This document shows, in pieces, positions 1 to 27,460 of a stretch of DNA of 64,000 nucleotides. Position numbers and translations under genes: made by a program. The stretch lies in NCBI RefSeq assembly GCF_054482595.1, contig NZ_CM137008.1. One strand, written 5' to 3'. The notes beneath the pieces were generated by a model. The model was given only the letters and a program-made list of their open reading frames with translations, made no database searches and had not been told where the DNA came from. Each line of letters starts with the position of its first letter. Within the stretch, counting starts at the first letter, position 1.

Positions 1-390
1 TTCGTCTGACCACTTAACGCCACGCTCTGTACCGAATGCCTGTATAAGCTCTAATAGCTCCGCAAATTCGCTTACACGCATCCTGCTGGTTGACTGGCCT
101 ATTACCACAAAGCCATTCCCGGCAAGGTTAGGAACAACGTCCTGCTGCTTTAATGCTGCGGTAAACACACACTTCCAGCTTTCTGCATCCAGCCAGCGAC
201 CATGCCATTCAACCTGACGAGAGACGTCACCAAGGCAAGCCCAAAGCTTTCGATTCTGGTCTAAGCTGCGGTTGCGTTCCTGAATGGTTACTACGATTGG
301 TTTGGTTGGGTCTGGAAGAATTTGCTGTACCGCGTGAATAGCGTTTTGCTGATGTGCTGGAGATCGAATTTCAAAGGTTAGTTTTTTCAT
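1..390 (-). CDS. ninB: NinB (Orf family recombination protein), N-terminal 130 codons; C-terminus lies beyond window start
   Basis: Reverse-strand translation from ATG at 390 reads MKKLTFEIRSPAHQQNAIHAVQQILPDPTK... and reaches window edge as ...ELLELIQAFGTERGVKWSDE, matching lambda NinB as recalled. Confidence 0.8.
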   Translation of the reverse strand, partial: MKKLTFEIRSPAHQQNAIHAVQQILPDPTKPIVVTIQERNRSLDQNRKLWACLGDVSRQVEWHGRWLDAESWKCVFTAALKQQDVVPNLAGNGFVVIGQSTSRMRVSEFAELLELIQAFGTERGVKWSDE

Positions 391-405
391 GACTTCCCTC
401 TCCCC

Positions 406-440
406 CAAATAAAAAGGCCTGCGATTACCAGCAGGCCTGT
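406..440 (-). terminator. Rho-independent terminator between ren and ninB (lambda tR2 position)
   Basis: 8-bp inverted repeat AGGCCTGC/GCAGGCCT followed on minus strand by UUUUUAUUU. Confidence 0.6.
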
Positions 441-463
441 TATTAGCTCAGTAATATAGATGG

Positions 464-754
464 TCATCTTTTAACTCCATATACCGCCAATACCCGTTTC
501 ATCGCGGCACTCTGGCGACACTCCTTAAAAATCAGGTTCGTGCTCATCTTTCCTTCCCGTTCTTCCTTGGTAGCAAACCGGTAATACACCGTTCGCCAGA
601 CCTTACCTTCGATAACCAGAAGACCTGCCCGTGCCATTTTAGCCGCGGCCTGATTTATGCTGGTTACTGTTGCGCCTGTTAGCGCGGCAACGTCCGGCGC
701 ACAGAAGCTATTATGCGTCCCCAGGTAATGAATAATTGCCTCTTTGCCCGTCAT
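464..754 (-). CDS. ren: Ren protein (96 aa)
   Basis: ORF translation matches lambda Ren as recalled; overlaps P stop as in lambda. Confidence 0.9.
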   Translation of the reverse strand: MTGKEAIIHYLGTHNSFCAPDVAALTGATVTSINQAAAKMARAGLLVIEGKVWRTVYYRFATKEEREGKMSTNLIFKECRQSAAMKRVLAVYGVKR

Positions 755-1452
755 ACACTTGCTCCTTTCAGTCCGAACTTAGCTTTGATTTCTGCGATCT
801 TCGCCAGAGCCTGTGCACGATTTAGAGGTCTACCGCCCATGACAGGAAGTTGTTTTACTGGTTCAGGGATCGCCTCACCACGGTTAATTCTCGCAGTCAT
901 ATGGACAAGCTCATCTGCGGCCTTACGGCGTAATTCCGCATCAGTAAGCGCATTGGCCCGCATGTTCTGATACAGGTTGGTAATCAGCCAGTAGTGCGCG
1001 TTTGATTTCCACGGATAAGACTCCGCATCCGGATACAGGCCTCGCTTCCGGCAATACTCGTAAACCATATCAACCAGCTCGCTGACGTTTGGCAGTCCGG
1101 CGGTAACGGATGCTTCTTCCCGGCACCATGCAACAAACTGCCCGGGTGATGGCAGAAATGGTCGATTCTGCCGACGGGCTACGCGCATTCCTGCGTTAAC
1201 CTGTTCCATTGTGGTGATCCCGTTTTCCCGGAAAGCCAGAACCCACTGGCGGCGGATTTCGTTCAGTTCGTTCTGGTCACGGTTAGCCAGGCTCGCCGGG
1301 AAAGTTGCCAGTAACTGGCTGAACACACCGTTGATGATCTGCGCTACCTGCTGTACCTGCGGCTTTTCGTCGTACTGTTCCGGCATGTTGTTGGCGATCC
1401 GACGCATCTGCTCACGGTCAAAGTTAACCATCTGTGCGGCGATGTTTTTCAT
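751..1452 (-). CDS. P: Replication protein P (DnaB helicase loader), 233 aa
   Basis: Full-length translation matches lambda P as recalled; overlaps O stop. Confidence 0.95.
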   Translation of the reverse strand: MKNIAAQMVNFDREQMRRIANNMPEQYDEKPQVQQVAQIINGVFSQLLATFPASLANRDQNELNEIRRQWVLAFRENGITTMEQVNAGMRVARRQNRPFLPSPGQFVAWCREEASVTAGLPNVSELVDMVYEYCRKRGLYPDAESYPWKSNAHYWLITNLYQNMRANALTDAELRRKAADELVHMTARINRGEAIPEPVKQLPVMGGRPLNRAQALAKIAEIKAKFGLKGASV

Positions 1453-2348
1453 AGATCCACCCCGTAAATCCAGTCTGTGTTTGTCAGGTCGAGTTTTGGT
1501 TTACTGGCTGTCACGACTGCCTGTTGCTTGTTACGGTTGATTTCGAGCTGGGTCCACTTGTCGCGGAGTTTGGCCGGACTCAGCACGTTACCGGACCAGA
1601 AGTTGTCCTGGCAGGCCCAGCGGAAAAGCACACACATATCGCGGTGGTTACGTCCGTCACGTTCACGCATCAGGCGGATATCGTTAGCCCACCCAGCAAA
1701 ATTCGGTTTTCTGGCTGATGGCGCGATGGTCTTCACCATGTCAAACATCCACTCTGCGGCGGTCAGGTCTTCTGCTGTTCCCCACTTGCTGCCGCTCTGA
1801 ATTGCAGCATCCGGTTTAACCACAGAAAGATCGTTTTCTGGCTGGTCAGAGGATTTGCCAGAATTCTCGGACGAATAATCTTTTCTTTTTTCTTTTGTAA
1901 TAGTGTCTTTTGTGTCCCCCTGTTTTGAGGGATAGCAATCCCCCAATTTGAGGGATGTTTTATCCCTCGTTTTAGGGGATTTTCCCTCGTTTTGAGGGAT
2001 ACACCATTCTGAGATGTTTTTATTTGGTCCAAACATGCCGCCTTGCTGCTTGATAATATTCATTCTGACGAGTTCTAACTTGGCTTCATTGCACCGTTTG
2101 ACAGGTAACTTTGTAATCTCGCTAAGTTGAGAATCGGTGATTCTGTCCATTGGTTTATTCCACCCATAGGTTTTACGCAGAATGGCAAGCAGCACTTTAA
2201 ACTGTCGCTTGGTCAGATCTGCGCCCGAATAAGCCTCAAGCAGCATATTTGATAGTCTGGCGTAACCATCATCGAGATCTGCCACATTACGCTCCTGTCC
2301 GGCAAAGTTACCTCTGCCGAAGTTGAGTATTTTTGCTGTATTTGTCAT
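1449..2348 (-). CDS. O: Replication initiator O, 299 aa
   Basis: Translation MTNTAKILNFGRGNFAGQERNV... near-identical to lambda O as recalled; contains ori iterons. Confidence 0.95.
   Translation of the reverse strand: MTNTAKILNFGRGNFAGQERNVADLDDGYARLSNMLLEAYSGADLTKRQFKVLLAILRKTYGWNKPMDRITDSQLSEITKLPVKRCNEAKLELVRMNIIKQQGGMFGPNKNISEWCIPQNEGKSPKTRDKTSLKLGDCYPSKQGDTKDTITKEKRKDYSSENSGKSSDQPENDLSVVKPDAAIQSGSKWGTAEDLTAAEWMFDMVKTIAPSARKPNFAGWANDIRLMRERDGRNHRDMCVLFRWACQDNFWSGNVLSPAKLRDKWTQLEINRNKQQAVVTASKPKLDLTNTDWIYGVDL
1870..2001. repeat. ori-lambda: four tandem iterons plus adjacent AT-rich region inside O
   Basis: Four ~19-bp repeats (TCCCTC-N-GAGGGA cores) at ~1912-2001, with an A/T-rich tract at 1870-1910. 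Confidence 0.85.
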
Positions 2349-2359
2349 AATGACTCCTG

Positions 2360-2434
2360 TGGATTGATCCAGTAATTCCCTCAGAATTGCATATCAATTT
2401 GCTTAGAGTCCCCGGCGGCCACCGGGGATTTTTT
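2360..2434 (+). ncRNA. oop: oop-like antisense RNA with its terminator (to), overlapping cII 3' end
   Basis: Plus-strand hairpin CCCCGG-CGGCCA-CCGGGG then T6 at 2410-2434, opposite to cII/O; position and sequence pattern resemble lambda oop as recalled; 5' end approximate. Confidence 0.6.
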
Positions 2435-2677
2435 CTTTGTGATTCCATCAAGCGCATACTTAAAAGCCCTGCTAATTGGACTGATGTCTGATGCCATTCC
2501 GAAAGCACACAAGACCGAAGCAATAAACCGCCAGTCCGTTCTGCTTATCTTCGATTCATGACAGCCAATCATCTTTGCCAGACCGCGCTGGGTAATAGTT
2601 GACAGATTGATAAGTAAATCTGTTTCTGCGCGATCAACGTCACGCTGTGATAGTTTGCTGTAACTTGTTCTTTCCAT
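2381..2677 (-). CDS. cII: CII-like transcriptional activator (98 aa)
   Basis: C-terminus ...KKKSPVAAGDSKQIDMQF resembles lambda CII ...KKRPAATERSEQIQMEF; HTH-like centre; lambda-order position between cro and O. Confidence 0.85.
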   Translation of the reverse strand: MERTSYSKLSQRDVDRAETDLLINLSTITQRGLAKMIGCHESKISRTDWRFIASVLCAFGMASDISPISRAFKYALDGITKKKSPVAAGDSKQIDMQF

Positions 2678-2762
2678 TTCTTAAGATTTCCAATAGTGAA
2701 TAGTTAGTTGAAAGGTATGCGTGGAAACGCATATGGCCTTAGTTGGTCAGATATCTTGGGAC

Positions 2763-2809
2763 TCGCTTTTCAGCGACGTAGGACGAATGTCCGTTGTTAC
2801 AAAGAGCGG
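2763..2809 (-). promoter_or_regulatory. nutR-like site (boxA CGCTCTTTGTAACAAC, boxB UCGCU-GAAA-AGCGA) on pR transcript
   Basis: Minus-strand boxA-like element followed by 5-bp stem/GAAA loop hairpin; near-identical architecture to the nutL candidate at 5263-5309. Confidence 0.5.
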
Positions 2810-2815
2810 GGTTAC

Positions 2816-3043
2816 TTATGCTGCCAGAAGGTTCTTTTTGCTTATTTCAAGCAATTCGCTTGCTTGATATTTGCCACCAGAAATCTCTTCGATTTTTGAG
2901 GCGTATTTCGTTTTCCCAAAAAACTCAGTCTTAGGGAGGAAGCCGTTTTTGAGCCACTTATAGACAGCCCTTTCGCTAACTCCACAAGCCTTCGCAACTT
3001 CAGGGATGCCGACACCTTTAATCGGCTCATCAAGATTTTGCAT
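2816..3043 (-). CDS. cro: Cro-like HTH repressor (75 aa)
   Basis: Small ORF divergent from cI with HTH motif (VAKACGVSERAVYKWLKNG); not lambda Cro sequence. Confidence 0.8.
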   Translation of the reverse strand: MQNLDEPIKGVGIPEVAKACGVSERAVYKWLKNGFLPKTEFFGKTKYASKIEEISGGKYQASELLEISKKNLLAA

Positions 3044-3122
3044 AGGAATATCCCTTTTTCGTACTTTTAGTACGCATTATGGTTGAACTGAAAGTTTTTG
3101 CAAGTGCTTTAGTATCGTACTC
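3044..3122. promoter_or_regulatory. oR-type operator/promoter region (divergent pR/pRM) between cro and cI
   Basis: 79-bp divergent intergenic region with palindromes GTACTTTTAGTAC (3061-3073) and AGTATCGTACT (3110-3120) and motif TTATGGTT also present near the pL region. Confidence 0.6.
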
Positions 3123-3830
3123 ATGGTTCAGAATGAAAAAGTGCGCAAAGAATTCGCCCAGCGGCTAGCGCAAGCCTGTAAAGAAGCTGGTCTTGATGAA
3201 CATGGTAGGGGTATGGCCATAGCCCGTGCCCTTTCTCTTTCGTCCAAAGGCGTTAGCAAATGGTTTAATGCTGAGTCTTTACCGCGTCAGGAAAAAATGA
3301 ATGCGCTTGCGAAATTTCTAAACGTTGATGTTGTTTGGCTTCAGCACGGCACTTCGTTAAATGGAGCGAATGATGAAGATACTCTTTCATTTGTTGGCAA
3401 ATTAAAAAAAGGGTTAGTGCGCGTGGTTGGTGAGGCAATTCTTGGTGTTGATGGTGCCATCGAGATGACCGAAGAGCGCGATGGGTGGCTCAAGATTTAT
3501 AGTGATGATCCAGATGCCTTTGGTCTTCGTGTGAAAGGAGACAGCATGTGGCCCAGAATAAAATCAGGAGAATATGTACTCATTGAGCCTAACACCAAAG
3601 TATTCCCGGGGGATGAGGTGTTTGTCAGAACCGTTGAAGGACACAACATGATCAAGATTCTTGGCTATGACAGAGATGGAGAATACCAATTTACAAGCAT
3701 CAACCAGGACCACAGGCCAATAACGTTACCTTATCATCAAGTAGCAAAGGTGGAGTATGTGGCTGGTATTCTGAAGCAATCTCGTCATCTGGATGACATC
3801 GAGGCAAGGGAGTGGCTGAAAAGTTTGTGA
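3123..3830 (+). CDS. cI: CI-type prophage repressor (N-terminal HTH + C-terminal S24 LexA-like autopeptidase), 235 aa
   Basis: HTH at N-terminus; GDSM serine motif and downstream lysine (MIKILG) typical of S24 family; heterologous to lambda cI. Confidence 0.9.
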   Translation: MVQNEKVRKEFAQRLAQACKEAGLDEHGRGMAIARALSLSSKGVSKWFNAESLPRQEKMNALAKFLNVDVVWLQHGTSLNGANDEDTLSFVGKLKKGLVRVVGEAILGVDGAIEMTEERDGWLKIYSDDPDAFGLRVKGDSMWPRIKSGEYVLIEPNTKVFPGDEVFVRTVEGHNMIKILGYDRDGEYQFTSINQDHRPITLPYHQVAKVEYVAGILKQSRHLDDIEAREWLKSL

Positions 3831-3953
3831 CTTCAAGTACGCGACAAGCCCCGTCCTTCAGGGCGTGGAGGATGTCAAAATAACTTTAAATAACACACCA
3901 CCAACATTTAACACATTGAATTAAAAAACCTACAATATTTGATGAGAGGCGTT

Positions 3954-4274
3954 ATGGAACCGGTCAAAATTAAACCATCTGTGGATTATATTGAAACCTA
4001 TGCGGACTTCGCTAGTTTTGCTCCACTACCGGGAGCGGAAAAAAATCTCATTTGTATACATTTTATCGCAAACAAGTCAATACCTGCGGTACTATCCCAA
4101 AATGATATACCAGATCAACCAGGTAGAGCGAATATGCAGATAGGCTCTGTAAATGAACTCAATCAGCAATGCACTGTGATAATGCCAATGGCACAACTAA
4201 AGGCTCTTCAGGAGAATATAGTTCTTCTTTTCGAACAATTAGAGGCACAAAACTCTAATGGAGCGAAGTCGTAA
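3954..4274 (+). CDS. Hypothetical protein ORF-A (~106 aa), first gene of cassette in rexA position
   Basis: ORF with GAGG Shine-Dalgarno 5 nt before ATG 3954 (alternative starts 3939/3942); stop overlaps ORF-B start (TAATG); no family recognised. Confidence 0.6.
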   Translation: MEPVKIKPSVDYIETYADFASFAPLPGAEKNLICIHFIANKSIPAVLSQNDIPDQPGRANMQIGSVNELNQQCTVIMPMAQLKALQENIVLLFEQLEAQNSNGAKS

Positions 4275-4957
4275 TGCAACAACCGGAAGAAGTAGGTGAT
4301 TTAACTATTACTTACAAAACATCAAGTATTGTTAAACCACTGCAAGTTTCCCTGAATAACGTTAATACTCGCGATTTCATGATGTTCATGGAAACAGCAA
4401 AAGGTAATCTGTTTTCTACGCCTATTTCCTCTTATTCACCAAAAAACATGGTGGATGATGCGACCAATTCCCAGCTAACTGCTACAATCGTAGATAAAGG
4501 AGGGGTTGCCGATTGTAAAGGACAATCTAATGTTATCCCACCGTACGAGGAAACTCCTATACAGGGAACCGCAATGTCCGATTTGAGCAGAAACGAAATA
4601 CAGGCACTTCTGAAGGCAAATAAAGCTGAAGTGGATGCAGTGGCCTCAAAAATGCAGGCTGATATGGCCAAATGGCGTGAACTAATGGCTTCAGATATAA
4701 AGGAGATGAAGCATTTAGTTGTTACTCAGCACGAACAAATCAACAGTCGTCTGGACATACAATCGAGTAGAATTGAGAGTGCCCTTGACTCCCAATCAAA
4801 AAAGATCGATGCAGCTCTTTCTGTTCAAGAGGCAAAGTTAGAAGGTAAGCTTAGTGATGTTAAGCTTGATATAATCAAATGGGCCCTTGGCTTGCCAGCA
4901 TTAGCATTTGCTGTATATAAAATCTACGGATTGCTCTCTGGAGTCTCAACCCCCTAA
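4274..4957 (+). CDS. Hypothetical tail-anchored membrane protein ORF-B (227 aa), in rexB position
   Basis: Translationally coupled to ORF-A; heptad-like/charged segment ~100-200; single C-terminal hydrophobic helix IIKWALGLPALAFAVYKIYGLL; no family recognised. Confidence 0.65.
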   Translation: MQQPEEVGDLTITYKTSSIVKPLQVSLNNVNTRDFMMFMETAKGNLFSTPISSYSPKNMVDDATNSQLTATIVDKGGVADCKGQSNVIPPYEETPIQGTAMSDLSRNEIQALLKANKAEVDAVASKMQADMAKWRELMASDIKEMKHLVVTQHEQINSRLDIQSSRIESALDSQSKKIDAALSVQEAKLEGKLSDVKLDIIKWALGLPALAFAVYKIYGLLSGVSTP

Positions 4958-4963
4958 TACACA

Positions 4964-4989
4964 CCCGGCCTCAGTGCCGGGTTTTCTTT
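4964..4989 (+). terminator. Rho-independent terminator closing the cI/ORF-A/ORF-B unit (lambda timm position)
   Basis: CCCGGC-CTCAGT-GCCGGG hairpin followed by TTTTCTTT. Confidence 0.65.
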
Positions 4990-4999
4990 GCCCAACGTT

Positions 5000-5262
5000 C
5001 GCCCACCTAAAAACACATAATCGATTGTATTTATTGAAAAACTGATAGATACAACTTGCTAAACAGTGCAACCCTGATCCCTGCCCCATCACCTTCATCC
5101 TCAACATTTACAAAAATAAAATACCTTATATATCAAAACCATATCTCGAGAAAACGAATGAACAACAAAATTTCGTACTTATGGTTCTTGATTGTATCGA
5201 ACCAATAGTTCATTATTATCACCATCAGCAGGACGCTGGAAGCCAAACGGAACAGACTGGCA
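5000..5262 (+). promoter_or_regulatory. pL/oL region (inferred), driving N and the leftward early operon
   Basis: Located between terminator and nutL; candidate -35/-10 TTGATT-17-CATTAT at ~5178-5206; inverted repeats GAACCAATAGTTC and TTATGGTTC. Confidence 0.4.
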
Positions 5263-5309
5263 GGCTCTTTAAACAACGTCGAACTCTCGACTACGTGGCT
5301 GAAAAGCCA
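5263..5309 (+). promoter_or_regulatory. nutL-like site (boxA GGCTCTTTAAACAAC, boxB UGGCU-GAAA-AGCCA)
   Basis: boxA-like GCTCTTT and 5-bp stem/GAAA loop hairpin ~100 nt upstream of N; same boxA/spacer(CTACGT)/boxB layout as the nutR candidate. Confidence 0.5.
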
Positions 5310-5407
5310 GATCACCCAACCACATAAGCTGTGGGATGCAATGCCGAAGCAACCGTCTCAGGAGGAGCTTCGAGATTGCATCGCCAAAGTTTATTCGGGA
5401 GGAATCT

Positions 5408-5680
5408 ATGTCCAGAAAAACAAAATTTAAAGGCACCGCAGCTTCTCGCCGTAGAGCCCGTCGCGCAAATCTGCAAAGTCAGGAGGCGATCAGCTCCGAC
5501 AAGCTACACAGACCAACCCCTTCACGAGTGGTCTTGCAATGCAAGCGCAAACCAGCAATGAGAGCAGAAGTTATAACTCTGACAACGTTGACCAGAAAAT
5601 ATGAAGGTTCAACTTGTCTTCCGAACGTAGCTCTTTACGCGGCAGGCTACCGGAAATCAAAACAACTGACGGCGAGATGA
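5408..5680 (+). CDS. N: N-type antiterminator (90 aa), P22 gp24-like
   Basis: Arg-rich N-terminal motif (GTAASRRRARRANL) and C-terminus ...CLPNVALYAAGYRKSKQLTAR resembling recalled P22 gp24 ...LLPGVALYAAGHRKSKQITAR; ORF-track start 5336 judged too far upstream. Confidence 0.8.
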   Translation: MSRKTKFKGTAASRRRARRANLQSQEAISSDKLHRPTPSRVVLQCKRKPAMRAEVITLTTLTRKYEGSTCLPNVALYAAGYRKSKQLTAR

Positions 5681-5696
5681 TAAATTAATTTGCTAA

Positions 5697-6278
5697 TTAC
5701 TTGTTTTTGCCATGCTTATCCTGAGCGATAAGTTCATCCATAAGACTGTCTTTCTTCCCAGCAAACCTAATGTAGCACTCATTTCTATAGCGTTCCGGGA
5801 TAACAAAACGGTCGATTTCAGGATATCCAGTAGCAGAAGGTACCCGAATAAGAAGCCCTTTTTCGAGCAATGAGATTGCTTCAGGGCTTCCCTTTTCTGT
5901 CTTTAGCTGGTTATTAGCGGCTACAGCGAATGCCAAATACGCTCTTTCTCCAAGAGTTAACGAATCAAACAAATCTTGCACGTATTTCTCTTCTTTAGAT
6001 TTGCGCTTCTGAGCAGCGAATATCTCAATTCTTTCAGTCACAGCGTGATAAGCGGAATTAACAACGCCGTTAAGCACATAGCTAACGCAAAACAACAGGA
6101 TGTAATACATCCAGTAATGAGGAAGGATTTCTGGATTATGCAGGTTTATCCATTCTTTTACGCTTACAGGCATAACAATAATCAATATGATCAGGATGAT
6201 TAGCATATGAATCAACTGTTTAAGTGTCATTCCTTGCAGGAAAAAATGCATTAGTTCCTGCCACCATGAGTTGTTCAT
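5697..6278 (-). CDS. sieB: Superinfection exclusion protein B (193 aa), membrane protein
   Basis: Translation MNNSWWQELMHFFLQGMTLKQLIHMLIILIILIIVMPV... matches lambda SieB as recalled. Confidence 0.9.
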   Translation of the reverse strand: MNNSWWQELMHFFLQGMTLKQLIHMLIILIILIIVMPVSVKEWINLHNPEILPHYWMYYILLFCVSYVLNGVVNSAYHAVTERIEIFAAQKRKSKEEKYVQDLFDSLTLGERAYLAFAVAANNQLKTEKGSPEAISLLEKGLLIRVPSATGYPEIDRFVIPERYRNECYIRFAGKKDSLMDELIAQDKHGKNK

Positions 6279-6538
6279 CGGCGTTTCTCTTTTGCTCTCT
6301 GTAGGGGTGAATAGAGTTTATCCGATTTCTCGCTGTAGGGGTACACGAGAACCACCGAGCCTGATGTGGTTAAAAGACAGGCATACTAATAAACACTGCA
6401 CTGTGTATTCATTCCAACGAGTGAATACACTGAGCAATGTCGCTCGTAACTAAACAGGAGCCGACTTGTTCTGATTATTGGAAATCTTCTTTGCCCTCCA
6501 ATGTGAGGGCGATTTTTTATCTGTGAGGATATGAATAG

Positions 6539-6907
6539 ATGTCAAACATCAAAAAATACATCATTGATTACGACTGGAAAGCATCAATAGAAATTGAAAT
6601 CGACCATGACGTAATGACAGAGGAAAAACTTCACCAGATTAATAATTTCTGGTCAGACTCTGAATACCGACTCAATAAACACGGCTCTGTATTAAATGCT
6701 GTATTAATCATGCTGGCGCAACATGCTCTGCTTATAGCAATTTCAAGCGACTTAAATGCATATGGTGTTGTGTGTGAGTTCGACTGGAATGATGGAAATG
6801 GTCAGGAAGGATGGCCTCCAATGGATGGTAGCGAAGGAATAAGAATTACCGATATCGATACATCAGGAATATTTGATTCAGATGATATGACTATCAAAGC
6901 CGCCTGA
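6539..6907 (+). CDS. ea10: Ea10-like protein (122 aa)
   Basis: Size and position between sieB and cIII as in lambda; sequence identity recalled only approximately. Confidence 0.75.
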   Translation: MSNIKKYIIDYDWKASIEIEIDHDVMTEEKLHQINNFWSDSEYRLNKHGSVLNAVLIMLAQHALLIAISSDLNAYGVVCEFDWNDGNGQEGWPPMDGSEGIRITDIDTSGIFDSDDMTIKAA

Positions 6908-6979
6908 GCGCGGCGTTACCGCATACCAATAACGCTTCACTCGAGGCGTTTTTCGTTATGTATAAATAAGGAGCACACC

Positions 6980-7144
6980 ATGCAATATGCCATTGCAGGG
7001 TGGCCTGTTGCTGGCTGCCCTTCCGAATCTTTACTTGAACGAATCACCCGTAAATTACGTGACGGATGGAAACGCCTTATCGACATACTTAATCAGCCAG
7101 GAGTCCCAAAAAATGGATCAAACACTTATGGCTATCCAGACTAA
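6980..7144 (+). CDS. cIII: CIII (FtsH inhibitor, 54 aa)
   Basis: Translation [54 protein letters not shown] matches lambda CIII; below ORF-track size cutoff. Confidence 0.9.
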   Translation: MQYAIAGWPVAGCPSESLLERITRKLRDGWKRLIDILNQPGVPKNGSNTYGYPD

Positions 7145-7256
7145 ATTCACTATCGCCACTTTTATTGGCGATGAAAAGATGTTTCGTGAGGCCGTCGACG
7201 CTTATAAAAAATGGATATTAATACTGAAACTGAGATCAAGCAAAAGCATTCACTAA
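7113..7256 (+). CDS. kil: Kil (FtsZ-targeting host killing peptide, 47 aa)
   Basis: [47 protein letters not shown] matches lambda Kil; overlaps cIII and gam. Confidence 0.85.
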
Positions 7257-7627
7257 CCCCCTTTCCTGTTTTCCTAATCAGCCCGGCATTTCGCGGGCGA
7301 TATTTTCACAGCTATTTCAGGAGTTCAGCCATGAACGCTTATTACATTCAGGATCGTCTTGAGGCTCAGAGCTGGACGCGTCACTACCAGCAGATCGCCC
7401 GTGAAGAGAAAGAGGCAGAACTGGCAGACGACATGGAAAAAGGTCTGCCCCAGCACCTGTTTGAATCACTCTGCATCGATCATTTACAACGCCACGGGGC
7501 CAGCAAAAAAGCCATTACCCGTGCGTTTGATGACGATGTTGAGTTTCAGGAGCGCATGGCAGAACACATCCGGTACATGGTTGAAACCATTGCTCACCAC
7601 CAGGTTGATATTGATTCAGAGGTATAA
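7211..7627 (+). CDS. gam: Gam (RecBCD inhibitor), 138 aa long form
   Basis: Translation near-identical to lambda Gam as recalled. Confidence 0.95.
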
Positions 7628-7632
7628 AACGG

Positions 7633-8418
7633 ATGAGTACAGCACTCGCAACGCTGGCTGGGAAGCTGGCTGAACGCGTCGGCATGGATTCTGTCGACCC
7701 ACAGGAACTGATCACCACTCTTCGCCAGACGGCATTTAAAGGTGATGCCAGCGATGCGCAGTTCATCGCATTGCTGATCGTCGCCAACCAGTACGGCCTT
7801 AATCCGTGGACGAAAGAAATTTACGCCTTCCCTGACAAGCAGAACGGCATCGTTCCGGTGGTGGGCGTTGATGGCTGGTCCCGTATCATCAATGAAAACC
7901 AGCAGTTTGATGGCATGGACTTTGAGCAGGACAATGAATCCTGCACATGCCGGATTTACCGCAAGGACCGCAATCATCCGATCTGCGTTACCGAGTGGAT
8001 GGATGAATGCCGCCGCGAACCATTCAAAACCCGCGAAGGCAGAGAAATCACGGGGCCGTGGCAGTCGCATCCCAAACGGATGTTACGGCATAAAGCCATG
8101 ATTCAGTGTGCCCGTCTCGCCTTCGGATTTGCTGGTATCTATGACAAGGATGAAGCCGAGCGCATTGTCGAAAATACCGCATACACTGCAGAACGTCAGC
8201 CGGAACGCGACATCACTCCGGTTAACGATGAAACCATGCAGGAGATTAACACTCTGCTGATTGCCCTGGATAAAACATGGGATGACGACTTATTGCCGCT
8301 CTGTTCCCAGATATTTCGCCGCGACATTCGAGCATCGTCAGAACTGACACAGGCCGAAGCAGTGAAAGCTCTTGGATTCCTGAAACAGAAAGCCACTGAG
8401 CAGAAGGTGGCAGCATGA
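7633..8418 (+). CDS. bet: Bet (Red beta single-strand annealing protein), 261 aa
   Basis: Translation matches lambda Bet as recalled. Confidence 0.95.
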
Positions 8419-9095
8419 CACCGGACATTATCCTGCAGCGTACCGGGATCGACGTGAGAGCTGTCGAACAGGGGGATGATGCGTGGCACAAATTACGGCT
8501 CGGCGTCATCACCGCTTCAGAGGTTCACAATGTGATAGCAAAACCCCGCTCCGGAAAGAAATGGCCTGACATGAAAATGTCCTACTTCCACACCCTGCTT
8601 GCCGAGGTTTGCACCGGTGTGGCTCCGGAAGTTAACGCTAAGGCGCTGGCCTGGGGAAAACAGTACGAGAACGACGCCAGAGCCCTCTTTGAGTTCACTT
8701 CCGGCGTGAATGTTACTGAATCCCCGATCATCTATCGCGACGAAAGTATGCGCACCGCCTGCTCTCCCGATGGTTTATGCAGTGACGGCAACGGCCTTGA
8801 ACTGAAATGCCCGTTTACCTCCCGGGATTTCATGAAGTTCCGGCTCGGTGGTTTCGAGGCCATAAAGTCGGCTTACATGGCCCAGGTGCAGTACAGCATG
8901 TGGGTGACGCGAAAAGATGCCTGGTACTTTGCCAACTATGACCCGCGCATGAAGCGTGAAGGCCTGCATTATGTCGTGATTGAGCGGAATGAAAAGTACA
9001 TGGCGAGTTTTGACGAGATGGTGCCGGAGTTCATCGAAAAAATGGACGAGGCACTGGCTGAAATTGGTTTTGTATTTGGGGAGCAATGGCGATGA
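8415..9095 (+). CDS. exo: Exo (Red alpha 5'-3' exonuclease), 226 aa
   Basis: Translation matches lambda Exo as recalled. Confidence 0.95.
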
Positions 9096-9274
9096 CGCAT
9101 CCTCACGATAATATCCGGGTAGGCGCAATCACTTTCGTCTACTCCGTTACAAAGCGAGGCTGGGTATTTCCCGGCCTTTCTGTTATCAGAAATCCACTGA
9201 AAGCACAGCGGCTGGCTGAGGAGATAAATAATAAACGGGGAGCTGTATGCACAAAGCATCTCCCGTTGAGTTAA
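9086..9274 (+). CDS. lambda orf60a-like small protein (62 aa)
   Basis: Matches recalled lambda orf60a; overlaps exo 3' end. Confidence 0.7.
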
Positions 9275-9438
9275 GAACGAGTATCGAGATGGCACATAGC
9301 CTCGCTCAAATTGGAGTCAGGTTTGTGCCAATACCAGTAGAAACAGACGAAGAATTTCATACGTTAGCCGCATCCCTTTCACAAAAGCTGGAAATGATGG
9401 TGGCGAAAGCAGAAGCAGATGAGAGAGACCAGGTATGA
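9247..9438 (+). CDS. lambda orf63-like small protein (63 aa)
   Basis: Matches recalled lambda orf63. Confidence 0.7.
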   Translation: MHKASPVELRTSIEMAHSLAQIGVRFVPIPVETDEEFHTLAASLSQKLEMMVAKAEADERDQV

Positions 9439-9518
9439 CAACCACGGAATGCATTTTTCTGGCAGCGGGCTTCATATTCTGTGTGCTTATGCTTGCCGAC
9501 ATGGGACTTGTTCAATGA
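9435..9518 (+). CDS. Small hydrophobic peptide (27 aa, MTTTECIFLAAGFIFCVLMLADMGLVQ), ATGA-coupled on both sides
   Basis: Read from sequence: ATG overlaps orf63 stop (ATGA), stop overlaps next gene start (ATGA); single predicted TM helix; below ORF-track cutoff. Confidence 0.4.
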   Translation: MTTTECIFLAAGFIFCVLMLADMGLVQ

Positions 9519-9730
9519 CACCTCAGCAGGAAAACGCCCTTCGCAGTATTGCCCGTCAGGCTAATTCTGAAATCAAAAAAGCCAGACAGCAGTTTCCGGA
9601 TAAAAACGTCGATGACATTTGCCGTAGCGTACTGAAGAAGCACCGCGAAACGGTAACGCTGATGGGATTCACACCGACTCATTTAAGCCTGGCGATCGGC
9701 ATGTTAAACGGCGTCTTTAAGGAACGGTGA
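9515..9730 (+). CDS. lambda orf61-like small protein (71 aa from this start)
   Basis: In-frame ATG at 9515 within ORF 9419-9730; sequence MTPQQENALRSIARQ...; start choice uncertain. Confidence 0.6.
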   Translation: MTPQQENALRSIARQANSEIKKARQQFPDKNVDDICRSVLKKHRETVTLMGFTPTHLSLAIGMLNGVFKER

Positions 9731-9752
9731 GCATGAAAAACAAAATCATCAT

Positions 9753-9776
9753 GGAGCTACAGGCTCCTTTTTTATT
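9753..9776 (+). terminator. Weak intrinsic terminator-like hairpin inside the leftward operon
   Basis: GGAGC-TACAG-GCTCC followed by TTTTTT; only a 5-bp stem. Confidence 0.35.
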
Positions 9777-9828
9777 ATTCGCATTCACCCTCAAGCGTAT
9801 TAACCAACAATTCAGGGATTAATGAAAG

Positions 9829-10050
9829 ATGGCAGACATCATTGATTCAGCATCAGAAATTGAAGAATTACAGCGCAATACAGCAATAAAAATGCGTCGT
9901 CTGAACTACCAGACTATATCCGCCACTCATTGTTGTGAGTGTGGCGATCCCATAGATGAACGAAGACGCCTGGTCGTTCAGGGTTGTCGGACTTGTGCAA
10001 GTTGCCAGGAGGATCTGGAGCTTATCAGTAAACAGAGAGGTTCGAAGTGA
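9829..10050 (+). CDS. TraR/DksA-family C4 zinc-finger protein (73 aa)
   Basis: CxxC...CxxC motif (CCECGDPIDERRRLVVQGCRTCASCQ) typical of TraR/DksA-type phage proteins. Confidence 0.7.
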   Translation: MADIIDSASEIEELQRNTAIKMRRLNYQTISATHCCECGDPIDERRRLVVQGCRTCASCQEDLELISKQRGSK

Positions 10051-10454
10051 GCGAAATTAACTCTCAGGCACTGCGTGAAGCGGCAGAGAAAGCCGGTGAA
10101 GATAAGTGGCAGGCTAAAAAAATAAATGGTGATTTTTTCGTTATTCGTCACGGTAGTTATACAAGACAGCATGGCTACACATCGTATCAACCCATTGCGG
10201 AGATTGATTGTAAGCCAGTCCGGGATTTTGTTGCCAAGGCTAATCCGGCTACCGTGCTGGAATTACTGGATGAACTGGAAGCAGCAAAAAAGCGCATTGC
10301 AGAACTGGAAGCGCGGGAAATACTGCTCCCGGAACGTAGCAGCATGCTTCATCGAACAGATTTTCACGATGATTACCAAACGGTAATGGCATACAAAGTT
10401 TCTGAAGTCATCGATGCAATCCGCGCTACTGGCATTCGCATCAAAGGAGAGTGA
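10047..10454 (+). CDS. Ead/Ea22-like protein (135 aa), shortened/mosaic
   Basis: N-terminus MSEINSQALREAAE and C-terminus ...ATGIRIKGE as in lambda Ea22 family; coiled-coil motif LELLDELEAAKKRIAELEARE. Confidence 0.7.
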   Translation: MSEINSQALREAAEKAGEDKWQAKKINGDFFVIRHGSYTRQHGYTSYQPIAEIDCKPVRDFVAKANPATVLELLDELEAAKKRIAELEAREILLPERSSMLHRTDFHDDYQTVMAYKVSEVIDAIRATGIRIKGE

Positions 10455-10455
10455 G

Positions 10456-11211
10456 ATGATTCACTACCACGGTGGGCCTATTACTCCTGATACGTGCGCA
10501 ATGAGGGCATGGAAAGGGCGACATGCGTTTATCAGTTTTGCGCATTCAGGCCAGATCAATCTCGCGGCTGAATACTGTCAGTCGTTCGCGCTGGACAACG
10601 GTGCATTCACCGCCTGGAAAGCAGCTGGCAAAAACAAAATCGACTGGAGCGATTACTACGAGTTTGTTGCTCGCTGGAAGAATCACCCAGGATTCGATTT
10701 TGCCATTATCCCGGATATTATTGATGGCGGAGAGGAGGAAAATGATGCGCTTCTGAATGAGTGGCCTCACGGAAAACTAGCTGGCGTTCCAGTGTGGCAC
10801 ATGAATGAAAGTGACGCGCGATTTATTCATTTGTGCAATGAGTTTCCGCGAGTGGCTATCGGTAGTTGTGGCGACTATGACGTAAAGCGCCCAACTCTTG
10901 CGGTAGCCAGAATGAAAGACCTGATTCGTCACATTGTTGATGGGCATGGTCAGCCGGTTACGAAACTACATGGATTGCGCATGTTAAATCCGCTGATATT
11001 CACAAAATTACCCTTAGCCAGCGCAGATAGTACGAACGTCGCTCGAAACATCGGTATTGATAAAGCCTGGTCTAGGGCTTATGCACCTGCAAGTAAAGAG
11101 ACACGCGCAGCATTAATGGTAGAACGGATTGAGGCACACAATAGCCCTGGTTCTCTTGCGTATTGTGAACAACGCGACCGCTTTGAAATGCAATTGCAAC
11201 TAGCAGTTTAA
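10456..11211 (+). CDS. TGT-fold protein, candidate DpdA-like 7-deazaguanine DNA transglycosylase (251 aa)
   Basis: Strong SD AGGAG before ATG 10456; ordered motifs LDNGAF, FAIIPD, VAIGSCG, HGLRM, ADSTNVARN resembling tRNA-guanine transglycosylase motifs DSGGYQ, MAFDE, AVGG, HYLMGVG, FDCVLPTRSGRN; no zinc-binding subdomain; assignment by eye. Confidence 0.55.
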   Translation: MIHYHGGPITPDTCAMRAWKGRHAFISFAHSGQINLAAEYCQSFALDNGAFTAWKAAGKNKIDWSDYYEFVARWKNHPGFDFAIIPDIIDGGEEENDALLNEWPHGKLAGVPVWHMNESDARFIHLCNEFPRVAIGSCGDYDVKRPTLAVARMKDLIRHIVDGHGQPVTKLHGLRMLNPLIFTKLPLASADSTNVARNIGIDKAWSRAYAPASKETRAALMVERIEAHNSPGSLAYCEQRDRFEMQLQLAV

Positions 11212-11221
11212 GGACTAACAA

Positions 11222-12019
11222 ATGACCACTATTACCAAAGAACGTATTGAATTGTTCATTAAAAATCCGCTTGAAAACGGACTTACTCGTGGCGAACAAA
11301 TGGAACTGGCACGAATTGCACTGGCATCACTGGAACGCGAACTGATTCGCCACGAGCATGCCAAATGGTCTGACTCCACATTTGGCTGCGTTGGCCCCAT
11401 TGGTCCACTGAAACACCTCTCAAAAGAGGCTCTGGAAGCCGCAGCCGAACCAGACGATCTCAGCGAGTGGGCTGATATGCATTTCCTGTTGTGGGATGCA
11501 CAGCGCCGTGCTGGCATCAGCGATGCTGAAATTACCGCTGCTATGGAAGATAAATTGAAGATCAACATGGAGCGCCAGTGGCCTGAACCAATAGATGGTG
11601 AGCCTCGCTTGCACATTAAAGAACCCGGCAACTCTCCGGTAATTCCGGATGGTTTATCCACGGTATGCGCTGAGGCTTATCAGGTTGTAGGAGTTATGGC
11701 AGATGCGCTTGGTGTATTCGGTGATGCAGCAGTACAGAAAGTTCTGGATAACCTGTCACAGCAAAAACTTGTTCACAGAGATGTGCTGCCGTTCTCGCTT
11801 CCGGTGACTCCGGATGGTTGGATAAGCTGTAGTGAGCGAATGCCGAAAGAAACGGGTGACATTATTGTTGTTTCGGATGGCATTGTAATGTCCGGGATTT
11901 CTTATTCTCGTCGTGACGGGTTCTATATAGCCGCATTGGAGTACGACGACGATGAGCCAATTGGCGGTGTAACCCACTGGATGCCTCTACCAGAACCGCC
12001 TCGATTAAAGGAGCTATAA
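11222..12019 (+). CDS. Phage protein with N-terminal dATP/dGTP pyrophosphohydrolase-like (DUF550-like) region and C-terminal DUF551-like region (265 aa)
   Basis: C-terminal motif PDGWISCSERMPKE...THWMPLPEPP typical of DUF551; N-terminal acidic region (EWADMHFLLWDAQRR) resembles MazG-like nucleotide pyrophosphohydrolases; recalled, not searched. Confidence 0.6.
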   Translation: MTTITKERIELFIKNPLENGLTRGEQMELARIALASLERELIRHEHAKWSDSTFGCVGPIGPLKHLSKEALEAAAEPDDLSEWADMHFLLWDAQRRAGISDAEITAAMEDKLKINMERQWPEPIDGEPRLHIKEPGNSPVIPDGLSTVCAEAYQVVGVMADALGVFGDAAVQKVLDNLSQQKLVHRDVLPFSLPVTPDGWISCSERMPKETGDIIVVSDGIVMSGISYSRRDGFYIAALEYDDDEPIGGVTHWMPLPEPPRLKEL

Positions 12020-12133
12020 TAGTGAACTATTATATCTATTTGTATTAAAAGAGTTTTTATAAAATAAATCTTCCAAAGCATGTAAAAACACTGTTAATCT
12101 TAACGTGTGTGAAACGTGAAGAGAGGTGTTGAA

Positions 12134-12415
12134 ATGAGCATTCATGATTTGTGTGAAGATCAAGAGCAATGGGCTATGCAGACCCTTATGGGATCAGGAG
12201 TTCTTGCAAGGTGCAGAATCCATAACGATGTAATTTTAGACAGCGGAAATGATGCTTCTTCTGCTTATAAATTAGGAACTTACCTATATCAAAAAGATAA
12301 TAGCTGCAACTTATTCAATACTCTTACTGAAGCCCGCGACGCAATAAAGGATGCATATGAATCGTATTGTGGGATCGATGATTGCCCACAATGCTCAAAA
12401 TACATTGACGATTAA
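12134..12415 (+). CDS. ea8.5: Ea8.5-like protein (93 aa from ATG 12134)
   Basis: SD GAGAGGTG upstream of ATG 12134 (ORF track starts at GTG 12116); C-terminal CPQC motif; lambda-like position and size. Confidence 0.6.
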   Translation: MSIHDLCEDQEQWAMQTLMGSGVLARCRIHNDVILDSGNDASSAYKLGTYLYQKDNSCNLFNTLTEARDAIKDAYESYCGIDDCPQCSKYIDD

Positions 12416-12503
12416 TAATATGAACAAGTAACTATCCTCGCACTCGCGGGGATTTCTTTTATCTGAACTCGCTACGGCGAGTTTTGTTTTATGGAGATGA
12501 TAA

Positions 12504-12671
12504 ATGCACTTCCGAGTTACAGGTGAATGGAATGGAGAACCATTCAACAGAGTTATCGAAGCCGAGAACATCAGCGACTGCTATGACCACTGGATGCTGT
12601 GGGCGCAGATAGCACATGCAGACGTAACCAATATTCGAATTGAAGAACTGAAAGAACACCAAGCCGCCTGA
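12504..12671 (+). CDS. lambda orf55-like protein (55 aa)
   Basis: Translation MHFRVTGEWNGEPFNRVIEAENISDCYDHWMLWAQIAHADVTNIRIEELKEHQAA; followed by hairpin and T-run; below ORF-track cutoff. Confidence 0.6.
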   Translation: MHFRVTGEWNGEPFNRVIEAENISDCYDHWMLWAQIAHADVTNIRIEELKEHQAA

Positions 12672-12710
12672 TGGCGGTTTTTTCTTGCGTGTAATTGCGG
12701 AGACTTTGCG

Positions 12711-12929
12711 ATGTACTTGACACTTCAGGAGTGGAACGCACGCCAGCGACGCCCAAGAAGCCTTGAAACAGTTCGTCGATGGGTACGCGAGTGCAGGATA
12801 TTCCCTCCTCCGGTTAAGGATGGAAGAGAGTATCTGTTCCACGAATCAGCGGTAAAGGTTGACTTAAATCGACCAGTAACAGGTAGCCTTTTGAAGAGGA
12901 TCAGAAATGGGAAGAAGGCGAAGTCATGA
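12711..12929 (+). CDS. xis: Excisionase Xis (72 aa)
   Basis: Translation MYLTLQEWNARQRRPRSLETVRRWVRECRIFPPPVKDGREYLFHESAVKVDLNRPVTGSLLKRIRNGKKAKS matches lambda Xis. Confidence 0.95.
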   Translation: MYLTLQEWNARQRRPRSLETVRRWVRECRIFPPPVKDGREYLFHESAVKVDLNRPVTGSLLKRIRNGKKAKS

Positions 12930-13980
12930 GCGCCGGGATTTACCCCCTAACCTTTATATAAGAAACAATGGATATTACTGCTACAGGGACCCAAGGACGG
13001 GTAAAGAGTTTGGATTAGGCCGAGACAGGAGGATAGCAATCACTGAAGCAATACAGGCCAATATTGAGTTACTCTCAGACAGCGGACGCAAATCACTGAT
13101 AGACAGAATTAAAGGCGGTGACGCAATCACTCTTCATGTGTGGCTTGACCGATATGAAACAATCCTCACCGAAAGGGGGATCAGGCCGAAAACTCTACTC
13201 GACTACGCCAGCAAAATCAGGGCAATCCGAAGAAAATTGCCGGACAAACCGCTCACTGACATATCAACGAAAGAAGTGGCAGCAATGCTAAACACCTACG
13301 TAGCAGAAGGTAAAGCAGCTTCCGCAAAATTAATCAGGTCAACCCTTGTTGACGTTTTTCGTGAAGCAATAGCCGAGGGGCATGTGGCAACGAATCCGGT
13401 AACAGCAACCCGTACAGCAAAGTCAGAAGTAAGGCGCTCAAGGCTGACAGCTAATGAGTATGTCGAGATTTACCATGCAGCCGAACCTCTCCCTATCTGG
13501 CTAAGGCTGGCGATGGATTTGGCCGTCGTTACAGGGCAGAGAGTCGGCGATTTGTGCAGAATGAAATGGTCAGACATAAACGACAACCATCTTCACATTA
13601 AACAGAGTAAAACAGGGGCTAAACTCGCCATTCCGCTAACGCTAACGATTGACGCGCTCAATATCTCATTGGCTGATACACTACAGAAATGCAGGGAGGC
13701 CAGCAGCAGTGAAACTATAATCGCATCAAAGCATCACGATCCGCTTTCCCCGAAAACAGTATCAAAGTATTTTACAAAGGCGAGAAATGCATCTGGCCTC
13801 TCATTTGATGGAAACCCGCCAACATTCCATGAACTGCGTAGCCTGTCAGCGAGGCTATACCGGAACCAGATTGGCGATAAGTTTGCTCAACGTCTTCTCG
13901 GGCATAAATCAGATTCAATGGCGGCGCGGTATAGGGACAGCCGTGGACGGGAATGGGACAAAATTGAAATCGACAAATGA
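12907..13980 (+). CDS. int: Tyrosine integrase Int (357 aa), lambda-family
   Basis: N-terminus MGRRRSHERRDLPPNLYIRNNGYYCYRDPRTGKEFGLGRDRRIAITEAIQANIEL and C-terminal RSLSARLY...HLLGHKSD...REWDKIEI as in lambda Int; central domain divergent. Confidence 0.95.
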   Translation: MGRRRSHERRDLPPNLYIRNNGYYCYRDPRTGKEFGLGRDRRIAITEAIQANIELLSDSGRKSLIDRIKGGDAITLHVWLDRYETILTERGIRPKTLLDYASKIRAIRRKLPDKPLTDISTKEVAAMLNTYVAEGKAASAKLIRSTLVDVFREAIAEGHVATNPVTATRTAKSEVRRSRLTANEYVEIYHAAEPLPIWLRLAMDLAVVTGQRVGDLCRMKWSDINDNHLHIKQSKTGAKLAIPLTLTIDALNISLADTLQKCREASSSETIIASKHHDPLSPKTVSKYFTKARNASGLSFDGNPPTFHELRSLSARLYRNQIGDKFAQRLLGHKSDSMAARYRDSRGREWDKIEIDK

Positions 13981-14074
13981 TTTTATTTTGACTAATAATG
14001 ACCTACTTACATTAATTTACTGATAATTAAAGAGATTTTAAATATACAACTTATTCACCTTAAGTGCACCGACC
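13981..14074. other. attL-type prophage/host junction region (P' arm with arm-type Int sites; core not resolved)
   Basis: TTTTGACTAATAATGACC resembles lambda P' arm-type sites as recalled; lies between int stop and host torS start. Confidence 0.4.
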
Positions 14075-16819: not shown

Positions 16820-16890
16820 ATCAATATCAGCCAGTTAAGAATAACTAGAATAGTGGCATTTGGTATGCAACTTAACGGACTGGCAAAATC

Positions 16891-17964: not shown

Positions 17965-17978
17965 ATTAGCAACAAGCG

Positions 17979-18008
17979 GAACATCACCTCGCACGGGGTG
18001 ATGTTCAC
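17979..18008. terminator. Bidirectional hairpin between convergent yccM and gnsA
   Basis: Inverted repeat AACATCACC...GGTGATGTT between the two stops. Confidence 0.5.
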
Positions 18009-18012
18009 AAAA

Positions 18013-18186
18013 TCACATTATTTTGATTTTGACATCATAACTTTCAAGCCCGGTCATTTTTTCTCGCGCGGTGAAGCGAATTTCAGAGACTTCTTTCCCT
18101 GTATTCTTGTTCAGCTCGGCGATTTTTTGCGCGATAAAGTCGGCGATTTCCGTTTCGGCTTGTTTTTTTAACTCTTCAATATTCAC
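18013..18186 (-). CDS. gnsA: GnsA (57 aa), GTG start
   Basis: Reverse translation MNIEELKKQAETEIADFIAQKIAELNKNTGKEVSEIRFTAREKMTGLESYDVKIKIM. Confidence 0.85.
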   Translation of the reverse strand: MNIEELKKQAETEIADFIAQKIAELNKNTGKEVSEIRFTAREKMTGLESYDVKIKIM

Positions 18187-18406: not shown

Positions 18407-18579
18407 GGTCAGTGCGTATTTGCAGCGCGACGTTATCAAAGGTGATCATCGTCGATTTACAAAAAATACACTTAGCGCCCAAAGGGTTTCGCTCCGTCAC
18501 ATCGAATGCCGATGTGCGGTACTGTGAACCATGACAACATGGACAGCGGAAATGGAGATGTTGAGTAATAACGGCAACC

Positions 18580-27446: not shown

Positions 27447-27460
27447 AACTGAAGGTAAAG

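Follow-up and report, generated by a model that had tools for sequence, protein, structure and literature searches.

Early arm of a lambda-supercluster prophage at the HK022 attachment site beside torS: a mosaic of lambda-, phi24B-, VT2-Sakai-, P22- and HK022-type modules

Introduction

Prophages of the lambda supercluster with HK022-like integrases lie between torS and torT in about 5% of Escherichia coli genomes, and their promoter region is conserved (PMC6814406). Integration of HK022 cuts torS off from its native promoters and from the IscR site, and in the lysogen torS is driven by a mapped outward prophage promoter in a short stretch after int; in lysogens the TorS level is higher and torCAD is no longer expressed aerobically, so that a bet-hedging strategy is lost (PMC6814406). 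The stretch analyzed here, the window, comprises 64,000 nucleotides (nt) of contig NZ_CM137008.1 (NCBI RefSeq assembly GCF_054482595.1) and holds at positions 1 to 14064 the early arm of a lambdoid prophage. With a probability of about 0.9, this is the early (left) arm of a temperate prophage of the lambda supercluster, placed by an HK022-type Int, Xis and attP at attB-HK022 between torT and torS. Judged from sequence comparison, the element is a new combination of known parts, all major modules having a close named relative, and the prophage class at torS-torT and its host effect are already published.

The closest described systems each share a part of the arm. HK022 (NC_002166) is nearest in Int, Xis, the P' arm with the core, and cII (88%), and, like the HK022/attB-HK022 prophages surveyed in PMC6814406, the element is inserted directly upstream of torS with the promoter region conserved. 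HK022 differs in having P22-type replication genes and Erf in place of lambda O/P and Red, in a cI merely 36% identical to the one here, and in that no N homologue was detected in it, whereas N and nut sites are present in the window. In place of N, HK022 uses Nun and put RNA. Phage lambda (NC_001416) shares the whole early-region order, with ninB, ren, P, O, the iterons, the Red/kil/cIII block, orf55 and Xis at 95 to 100% amino acid (aa) identity, and differs in cI, cro, the operators, cII, N, the nut sites, sieB, the rex slot, Int specificity, attachment site and b-region cargo; its ral is absent here. VT2-Sakai (NC_000902) shares N, nutR over 46 nt, the nutL boxB, cII and the Red/kil/cIII block (97.7% DNA identity), but its cI, cro, replication genes, int and late genes are all other, and it carries stx2, which the element here probably lacks. 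In phi24B (EF517298), cI and Cro are close to identical and the layout of OR1 to OR3 and OL1 to OL2 is equal, with nearly the same sequences, but stk, encoding a Ser/Thr kinase, fills the slot after cI that is occupied here by a different two-gene cassette. P22 resembles the element in SieB (85%), ninB (98%), the EaA-like protein and the C terminus of N; its N as a whole, with the arginine-rich motif and boxB, is unlike, and its immunity, replication, recombination and integration modules are unrelated. The best single phage record, PhiR11_1 (PV340547), has the N allele, the nut sites, lambda O/P and the Red block in common, but its cI, cro, rex-slot genes and b-region cargo are other and its Int is of the lambda type (75% identical to the Int here).

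The main value of the analysis is a corrected annotation, and the potential for discovery is limited to two accessory modules, a cassette in the rex slot and a solitary TGT/DpdA-like gene.

Extent, gene order and database matches

Compared to the standard lambda map, the arm has the opposite orientation. The window start cuts the prophage inside ninB and the rest of the element lies further left; at the other end the attachment core closes the prophage near 14064, and torS begins 10 nt beyond the core, so the extent of 1 to 14074 given in the original prediction was corrected. The open reading frame (ORF) map and the RefSeq annotation gave the order ninB-ren-P-O-cII-cro / cI-(rex slot)-N, sieB, ea10-cIII-kil-gam-bet-exo-...-xis-int. 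Read from the other end, int-xis-(ea genes)-recombination-kil-cIII-N-(slot)-cI / cro-cII-replication-nin is the layout of the lambda supercluster. The original prediction of a mosaic lambdoid prophage is upheld by this synteny together with modules from different phages, and the module exchange that it proposed at the immunity and b/ea regions was borne out by DNA and protein comparison.

The region was matched by 657 phage records, and the best coverage by any single one, PhiR11_1, was 66% at 94.7% identity. At least 80% of window positions 1 to 20000 was carried by 37 of the 5,426 complete E. coli genomes, the three best of which were 99.3 to 99.5% identical over this interval. No distinctive islands were found in the base composition profile.

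Integration module, attachment site and torS

The integration end of the arm and the adjoining host gene contain the following features.

12504 to 12671, plus strand: orf55, 96.4% aa identical to lambda
12711 to 12929, plus strand: xis, 100% identical to HK022 Xis and 98.6% to lambda Xis
12907 to 13980, plus strand: int, 96.6% identical to HK022 Int and 74.9% to lambda Int
13981 to 14064, plus strand: torS-side junction with the HK022 P' arm and core (ending in TTCACCTTAAG), carrying the region of the phage-borne promoter that reads into torS
14075 to 16819, plus strand: host gene torS, so named in matching genomes, with the annotated GTG start at 14075 and a supported ATG at 14105

At the DNA level, 12663 to 14064 was 95.9% identical to HK022 positions 22041 to 20640, and 160 of 161 nt were identical over 13904 to 14064, which covers the end of int, the P' arm and the core. 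An HK022-type Int, Xis and attP arm place the prophage between torT and torS at attB-HK022, not at att-lambda. The insertion was found at attB-HK022 with int reading towards torS, in agreement with the published position (PMC6814406); we follow the torT-side and torS-side naming of Carey et al. 2019, in which the torS-side junction is called attL-HK022 (PMC6814406). Integration at att-lambda was rejected, as the junction adjoins torS and not gal-bio.

These results bear on the view, taken in the original prediction, that a lambda backbone with lambda's own int-xis, and hence lambda att specificity, received its immunity region and a P22-type N from elsewhere. Its lambda-like side is seen in Xis and in Int residues 1 to 55, which are the same as in lambda. 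From residue 56 on, however, differences from lambda Int extend to the C terminus, and overall identity is only 75%, so that Int does differ from lambda as predicted, but not in the central domain alone. With Int, Xis, the P' arm and the core all of the HK022 type and the prophage beside torS, int-xis no longer counts as part of a lambda backbone. The N half of that view is taken up with the nut sites below.

For the HK022-type prophage at torS, the host consequence would be that torS passes from its native promoters and the IscR site to a phage promoter within the 84 bp after int. Because the stretch after int is conserved, the torS effect described for HK022 is expected here as well, and the integration module thus predicts a host phenotype that had been missed earlier, namely, TorS overexpression and loss of aerobic torCAD bet-hedging. 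In reporter fusions, only an ATG in frame with the GTG and 30 nt beyond it, here at 14105, was supported as the start of torS (PMC6814406).

Several points weigh against the assignment of the element or of its host effect. Position 14061 in the attachment core is T, compared to A in HK022 and strain 4FM: the core reads TTCACCTTAAG in this copy and in strain EC5502, and TTCACCTAAAG in HK022 attP and at both 4FM junctions, including the one on the torT side. We take the variant position to lie outside the AGGTGAA overlap. The window shows the early arm alone, the late genes and the other att junction of this copy lying outside it, and expression, induction and immunity of this copy are predicted from its sequence. 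The experiments on the torS effect were made with HK022 and the NRG 857C prophage, and the authors caution that prophages may differ in behavior (PMC6814406).

Immunity region

The core of the immunity region consists of cro, cI and two sets of operators.

2816 to 3043, minus strand: cro, phi24B type, 98.7% aa identical to phi24B Cro
3060 to 3130, no strand assigned: OR operators with the divergent PR/PRM region, comprising OR1 (3060 to 3074), OR2 (3084 to 3103) and OR3 (3116 to 3130), aligned to the EF517298 annotation
3123 to 3830, plus strand: cI repressor, phi24B immunity type, 235 aa, 99.6% aa identical to phi24B cI, with Pfam domains HTH_3 and Peptidase_S24
5174 to 5212, no strand assigned: OL operators at PL, comprising OL2 (5174 to 5188, CGTACTTATGGTTCT) and OL1 (5198 to 5212, CGAACCAATAGTTCA)

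The DNA from 2816 to 3835 was 97.9% identical to the phi24B immunity record EF517298, and the edges of this module are the stop codons of cro and cI. OR2 and OR3 were the same as in phi24B; OR1 had one mismatch within the annotated 15-bp site and one in a flanking base. A PR-like promoter was located by scan at 3103 to 3076, and OL1 and OL2 have the half-sites and the 9-nt spacing of the annotated phi24B operators. The alignments assign the immunity to the phi24B type, a relative of 933W, with PL and PR predicted to diverge under a cI with an autocleavage domain that acts at multiple operators.

The original prediction that cI, cro, the operators, the rex-slot genes and N differ from lambda was confirmed: alignment of the immunity region and N revealed no lambda identity, with only weak local similarity in cI (a match over 45 aa) and in N, and none in cro or the rex-slot genes. 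Lambda immunity was rejected, since 2443 to 4962 had no lambda DNA match and protein comparison found no similarity between Cro and lambda Cro.

By homology, in the lysogen the phi24B-type cI would bind OR1 to OR3 and OL1 to OL2 and silence PR and PL, and its S24 domain would allow induction via RecA and the SOS response.

N antiterminator and nut sites

The immunity core is flanked by the antitermination elements.

2763 to 2808, minus strand: nutR, with boxA CGCTCTTT, a spacer hairpin and boxB TCGCT-GAAA-AGCGA
5263 to 5309, plus strand: nutL, with boxA GCTCTTTA, a spacer hairpin and boxB TGGCT-GAAA-AGCCA
5408 to 5680, plus strand: N antiterminator, 90 aa, Pfam N_peptide with E = 8e-32

A strong ribosome-binding site (GGAGG) goes with the N start at 5408; translation from an ATG further upstream, at 5336, would give 114 aa. 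N was 98.9% identical to VT2-Sakai N, 41% to P22 gp24 and 32% to lambda N. The exact 46-nt nutR site was found in VT2-Sakai and PhiR11_1 and was absent from lambda, P22, HK022 and 1H12, and the nutL boxB had the same distribution, occurring in VT2-Sakai and PhiR11_1 only. Among the phages compared, the boxB hairpins thus track those with this N allele, and by alignment the N/nut system, with N and both boxB hairpins, is of the VT2-Sakai type. The nutL fold had an energy of -14.9 kcal/mol (z = -3.0).

N had been described as P22-like at its C terminus and as P22-type overall. The first part stood, as 19 of the 25 C-terminal positions match P22 gp24. The second did not: overall identity is low, the arginine-rich RNA-binding motif at the N terminus differs from that of gp24, and the boxB sequences are absent from P22. 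A phage-21-type N was likewise rejected, since tblastn with N gave no match in lambda imm21. Together with the alignments of int-xis and the chromosomal location, this refutes the lambda backbone with a swapped-in P22-type N, and we leave it next to no probability.

For the element read here as an HK022-type integrant with a Sakai-type N, both flanks of the phi24B cro-cI core are of the Sakai type, which indicates that N and the two nut sites stayed together while the core was exchanged. A functional constraint on mosaicism is thereby seen in the swap of cro-cI within a frame that retains N, nutL and nutR of one type. During the lytic phase, Cro and the VT2-Sakai-type N would be made, and N would act at its own cognate nutL and nutR flanking the swapped core, extending transcription into the lambda Red/kil/cIII block one way and into the O/P/ori block the other, if the homologous parts function as in their relatives. 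The combination of phi24B immunity with VT2-Sakai N predicts which phages are excluded by the lysogen and which can serve as recombination partners, including Shiga-toxin phages.

In the minimum-energy folds of nutL and nutR, the 3' half of boxB pairs with boxA and encloses the spacer hairpin, as an alternative to the simple boxB hairpin. Such pairing is reminiscent of alternative NUT structures in H-19B nut RNA. At 5205 to 5430, RefSeq annotation has a hypothetical protein with a frameshift; the call is probably spurious because this interval holds PL-proximal sequence and nutL.

Mobility and completeness

The arm of 14,064 nt had 0 mismatches against EC5502 and 2 against 4FM. The adjoining 5.9 kb of chromosome (14065 to 20000) had 137 differences (2.3%) and 92 differences (1.5%), respectively. 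Near-identical arms in chromosomes differing by 1.5 to 2.3% indicate recent horizontal spread of the same phage. The 4FM prophage, whose arm is 99.99% identical, is a complete element of about 48 kb that spans the interval between torT and torS and has Q, lysis, head and tail genes of the lambda type, and no stx gene is annotated in it between the Q-like antiterminator gene and the holin. Arm identity across lineages together with this complete copy argues for a functional, recently spreading phage, and the phage appears intact and recently mobile, having lysogenized different lineages.

The arm could instead belong to a defective or cryptic remnant, of which it is the sole survivor or in which excision or virion formation was lost. 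Just 14 kb of the element lie in the window, ral has been lost, the att core carries a single-base variant, and two small RefSeq pseudogenes are marked in the region, all of which would fit a remnant. All recognizable genes of the arm are nevertheless full-length, the pseudogene at 11222 is an intact ORF of 265 aa, the nearly identical 4FM copy is complete, and the identical copies beside diverged chromosomal sequence point to recent transfer, which makes a remnant improbable.

Alleles of cI and N known from Shiga-toxin (Stx) phages, and Stx1a phages described at torS-torT, raise the question of whether the prophage is itself Stx-converting. Its cI finds matches in phi24B and in many Stx1a and Stx2a phages, as does its N in VT2-Sakai; the Stx1a phage EH2115 aligns over 63% of the region (98.2% identity), and O111 and O26-like genomes cover about 83% of window positions 1 to 20000. 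Against this, replication is of the lambda O/P type here compared to HK022/P22-type genes in VT2-Sakai, and the 4FM copy has lambda-type late genes with no stx gene annotated from Q to the holin; the late region of the present copy lies outside the window. A Stx-converting phage is therefore very improbable, more so than a remnant, and an intact lambda-supercluster prophage remains the preferred reading.

Cassette in the rex slot

The interval after cI is filled by one cassette.

3908 to 4982, plus strand: rex-slot cassette, with a promoter-like site (3908 to 3936), an ORF of 106 aa (3954 to 4274), a DUF1640/CCDC90-like ORF of 227 aa (4274 to 4957) and a terminator hairpin (4963 to 4982)

The promoter-like site had 10 of 12 matches, and a scan found no terminator between cI and the rex-slot ORFs. 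The DNA directly past the cassette was 82.5% identical to lambda 35825 to 35709, just after rexB, which places the cassette precisely at the rexAB position. A RexAB exclusion system was rejected: BLASTP of the rex-slot proteins against RexA and RexB found no significant match, and the shared feature is position only, after cI and before a t_imm-like terminator.

The 227-aa protein had a Pfam CCDC90-like match below the gathering score and a match to phrog_14825, which has no assigned function. It consists of a short conserved N-terminal segment, a variable linker and a strongly conserved coiled coil from the invariant Met101, and ends in a hydrophobic, conserved C terminus with a borderline membrane helix (hydropathy score of 1.5). 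Met101, encoded at 4574 to 4576, opens the conserved half of the protein, and stand-alone homologues of about 165 aa exist; there are hints of an internal translation start at this residue, as in sieB/esc. The 106-aa protein was described as beta-sheet-plus-helix, its model having no usable structural match, and its homologue search gave 6 sequences. Neither the rex-slot proteins nor the cargo proteins of the b/ea region had an NCBIfam match or a meaningful PADLOC match (one at E = 0.0091, with no stretch passing alone), and literature on DUF1640 in prophages yielded no functional information.

The cassette was absent from 50,697 phage records, in which its DNA gave chance matches of 42 nt only, and was carried at an identity of at least 99.7% by 39 of the 5,426 E. 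coli genomes. Homologous pairs, with the larger protein 40 to 54% identical, fill the cI-to-N slot in Yersinia and metagenome prophages with other repressor alleles; one further homologous pair adjoins tail-fiber genes, and Klebsiella, Serratia and Providencia have relatives of the larger protein as single genes.

The rexAB position and the analogy with RexAB, Stk and SieB make exclusion the best guess for the function. We tentatively propose, as a possibility carrying somewhat less than even odds, that the two genes are a repressor-linked phage-exclusion or abortive-infection module which may act in the lysogen and move as a unit between lambdoid moron hotspots in Escherichia, Yersinia and uncultured metagenome prophages. 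By homology, the lysogen probably expresses the cassette, either cotranscribed with cI or from its own promoter, and sieB, with the outward promoter of the P' arm also active.

Cargo of the b/ea region

The original prediction of cargo interleaved with ea genes was confirmed by the non-lambda genes at 10089 to 12368. The cargo spans 10047 to 12415 on the plus strand.

10047 to 10454, plus strand: Ea22-like gene, following the lambda-type TraR/DksA ORF
10456 to 11211, plus strand: gene for a 251-aa protein, a possible TGT/DpdA-like TIM barrel, matching phrog_887
11222 to 12019, plus strand: EaA-like gene, 265 aa, 47% identical to P22 EaA; domains dATP/dGTP pyrophosphohydrolase and DUF551
12134 to 12415, plus strand: ea8.5 homologue, 41% identical to lambda ea8.5

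The 251-aa protein matched phrog_887, labeled queuine tRNA-ribosyltransferase, with E = 3e-101, and its AlphaFold model (predicted local distance difference test [pLDDT] of 63, predicted template modeling score [pTM] of 0.67) most closely resembled DpdA/TGT-type TIM barrels. Its family, which has neither a Pfam model nor names, comprises more than 7,600 clusters, with members 64 to 93% identical across Enterobacterales, Vibrio, Aeromonas and Shewanella. A Pfam scan of 30 family members found no TGT domain even at E <= 1, searches with the single protein and with the 30-member profile found no real sequence relative in the PDB, and the family alignment had no invariant Cys cluster or zinc-site cysteines. 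A large phage group with solitary DpdA has been described, in which two tested phages had no or only trace DNA modification (Hutinet et al. 2019), and the 251-aa gene may be one of these solitary phage DpdA-like genes.

RefSeq copies of 11222 to 12019 in other strains are split into a partial pseudogene and a shorter coding sequence. A real disruption was rejected, the ORF being intact here and the split arising from the annotation pipeline.

SieB, cII and the oop-like RNA

Three further features depart from lambda in whole or in part.

2323 to 2438, plus strand: oop-like antisense RNA unit, with the Po promoter (2323 to 2351), a transcript starting near 2359 and, ahead of a T run, a terminator hairpin (2405 to 2432), located by scan
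2381 to 2677, minus strand: cII, non-lambda allele, 32% identical to lambda cII, 90.8% to VT2-Sakai and 87.8% to HK022; phrog_191, CII-like activator
5697 to 6278, minus strand: sieB, superinfection exclusion, P22 type, 84.8% identical to P22 SieB, 24% to lambda SieB and 99.5% to phage 1H12 SieB; Pfam SieB

The earlier description of sieB as lambda-like did not withstand comparison, as the protein shares little with lambda SieB and the gene has no lambda DNA match. The divergence of cII from lambda had not been noted. The predicted 82-nt oop-like RNA had a fold of -31.2 kcal/mol (z = -4.5). Po and the first 20 or so nt of the transcript are the same as in lambda, the rest of the unit, terminator included, goes with the non-lambda cII allele, and the lambda/non-lambda junction coincides with the cII stop codon. 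An oop-like unit is thus present as predicted, but it is a hybrid and not the lambda oop, its 3' part diverging with cII.

Lambda-type blocks

By blastn of the window against lambda 27001 to 42500, positions 1 to 2442 aligned without gaps to lambda 41033 to 38592 (97.6%) and 6388 to 10088 matched lambda 34055 to 30354 (97.9%), the two near-identical blocks summing to 6.1 kb. A weaker block covered 12369 to 14004 (78.9%), and there was essentially no lambda match over 2443 to 6298 or 10089 to 12368.

1 to 390, minus strand: ninB, partial, its 3' part cut by the window start, 99.2% aa identical to lambda NinB over 130 aa and annotated NinB by RefSeq in a matching genome
464 to 754, minus strand: ren, 97.9% aa identical to lambda
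751 to 1452, minus strand: P, 99.1% aa identical to lambda
1449 to 2348, minus strand: O, 99.3% aa identical to lambda
1916 to 2000, minus strand: ori-lambda iterons 1 to 4, within O, aligned to lambda 39034 to 39118, 4 of 4 identical
6388 to 10088, plus strand: PL operon block with ea10, cIII, kil, gam, bet, exo, orf60a, orf63, orf61, a TraR/DksA zinc-finger ORF and the start of the ea22-like gene

In protein comparison, ea10, cIII and kil were 100% identical to lambda, gam 97.8%, bet 99.6%, exo 98.2%, orf60a 98.3% and orf63 95.2%. The near-identity to lambda predicted for ninB, ren, P, O, gam, bet, exo, kil, cIII and xis thus holds at 97.8 to 100% aa, as does the presence of the ori iterons; ea10, orf60a, orf63 and orf55 are likewise near-identical and had been absent from the earlier list. 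The Rfam E-value scan gave the cIII thermoregulator RNA at 6967 to 7025 (Lambda_thermo, 88.5 bits) as its sole match, Rfam holding no oop or nut family.

The alignment skips lambda 34396 to 34055 at window positions 6383/6388, which deletes ral. About 340 bp with ral and orf28 are gone compared to lambda, between the sieB promoter region and ea10 (6383 to 6388). The orf61 homologue at 9419 to 9730 exceeds the lambda reference length, having 71 aa when started at 9515 and 103 aa when started at 9419. Its matches to lambda fall in two frames, which indicates a frame difference at this place in the lambda reference annotation or sequence.

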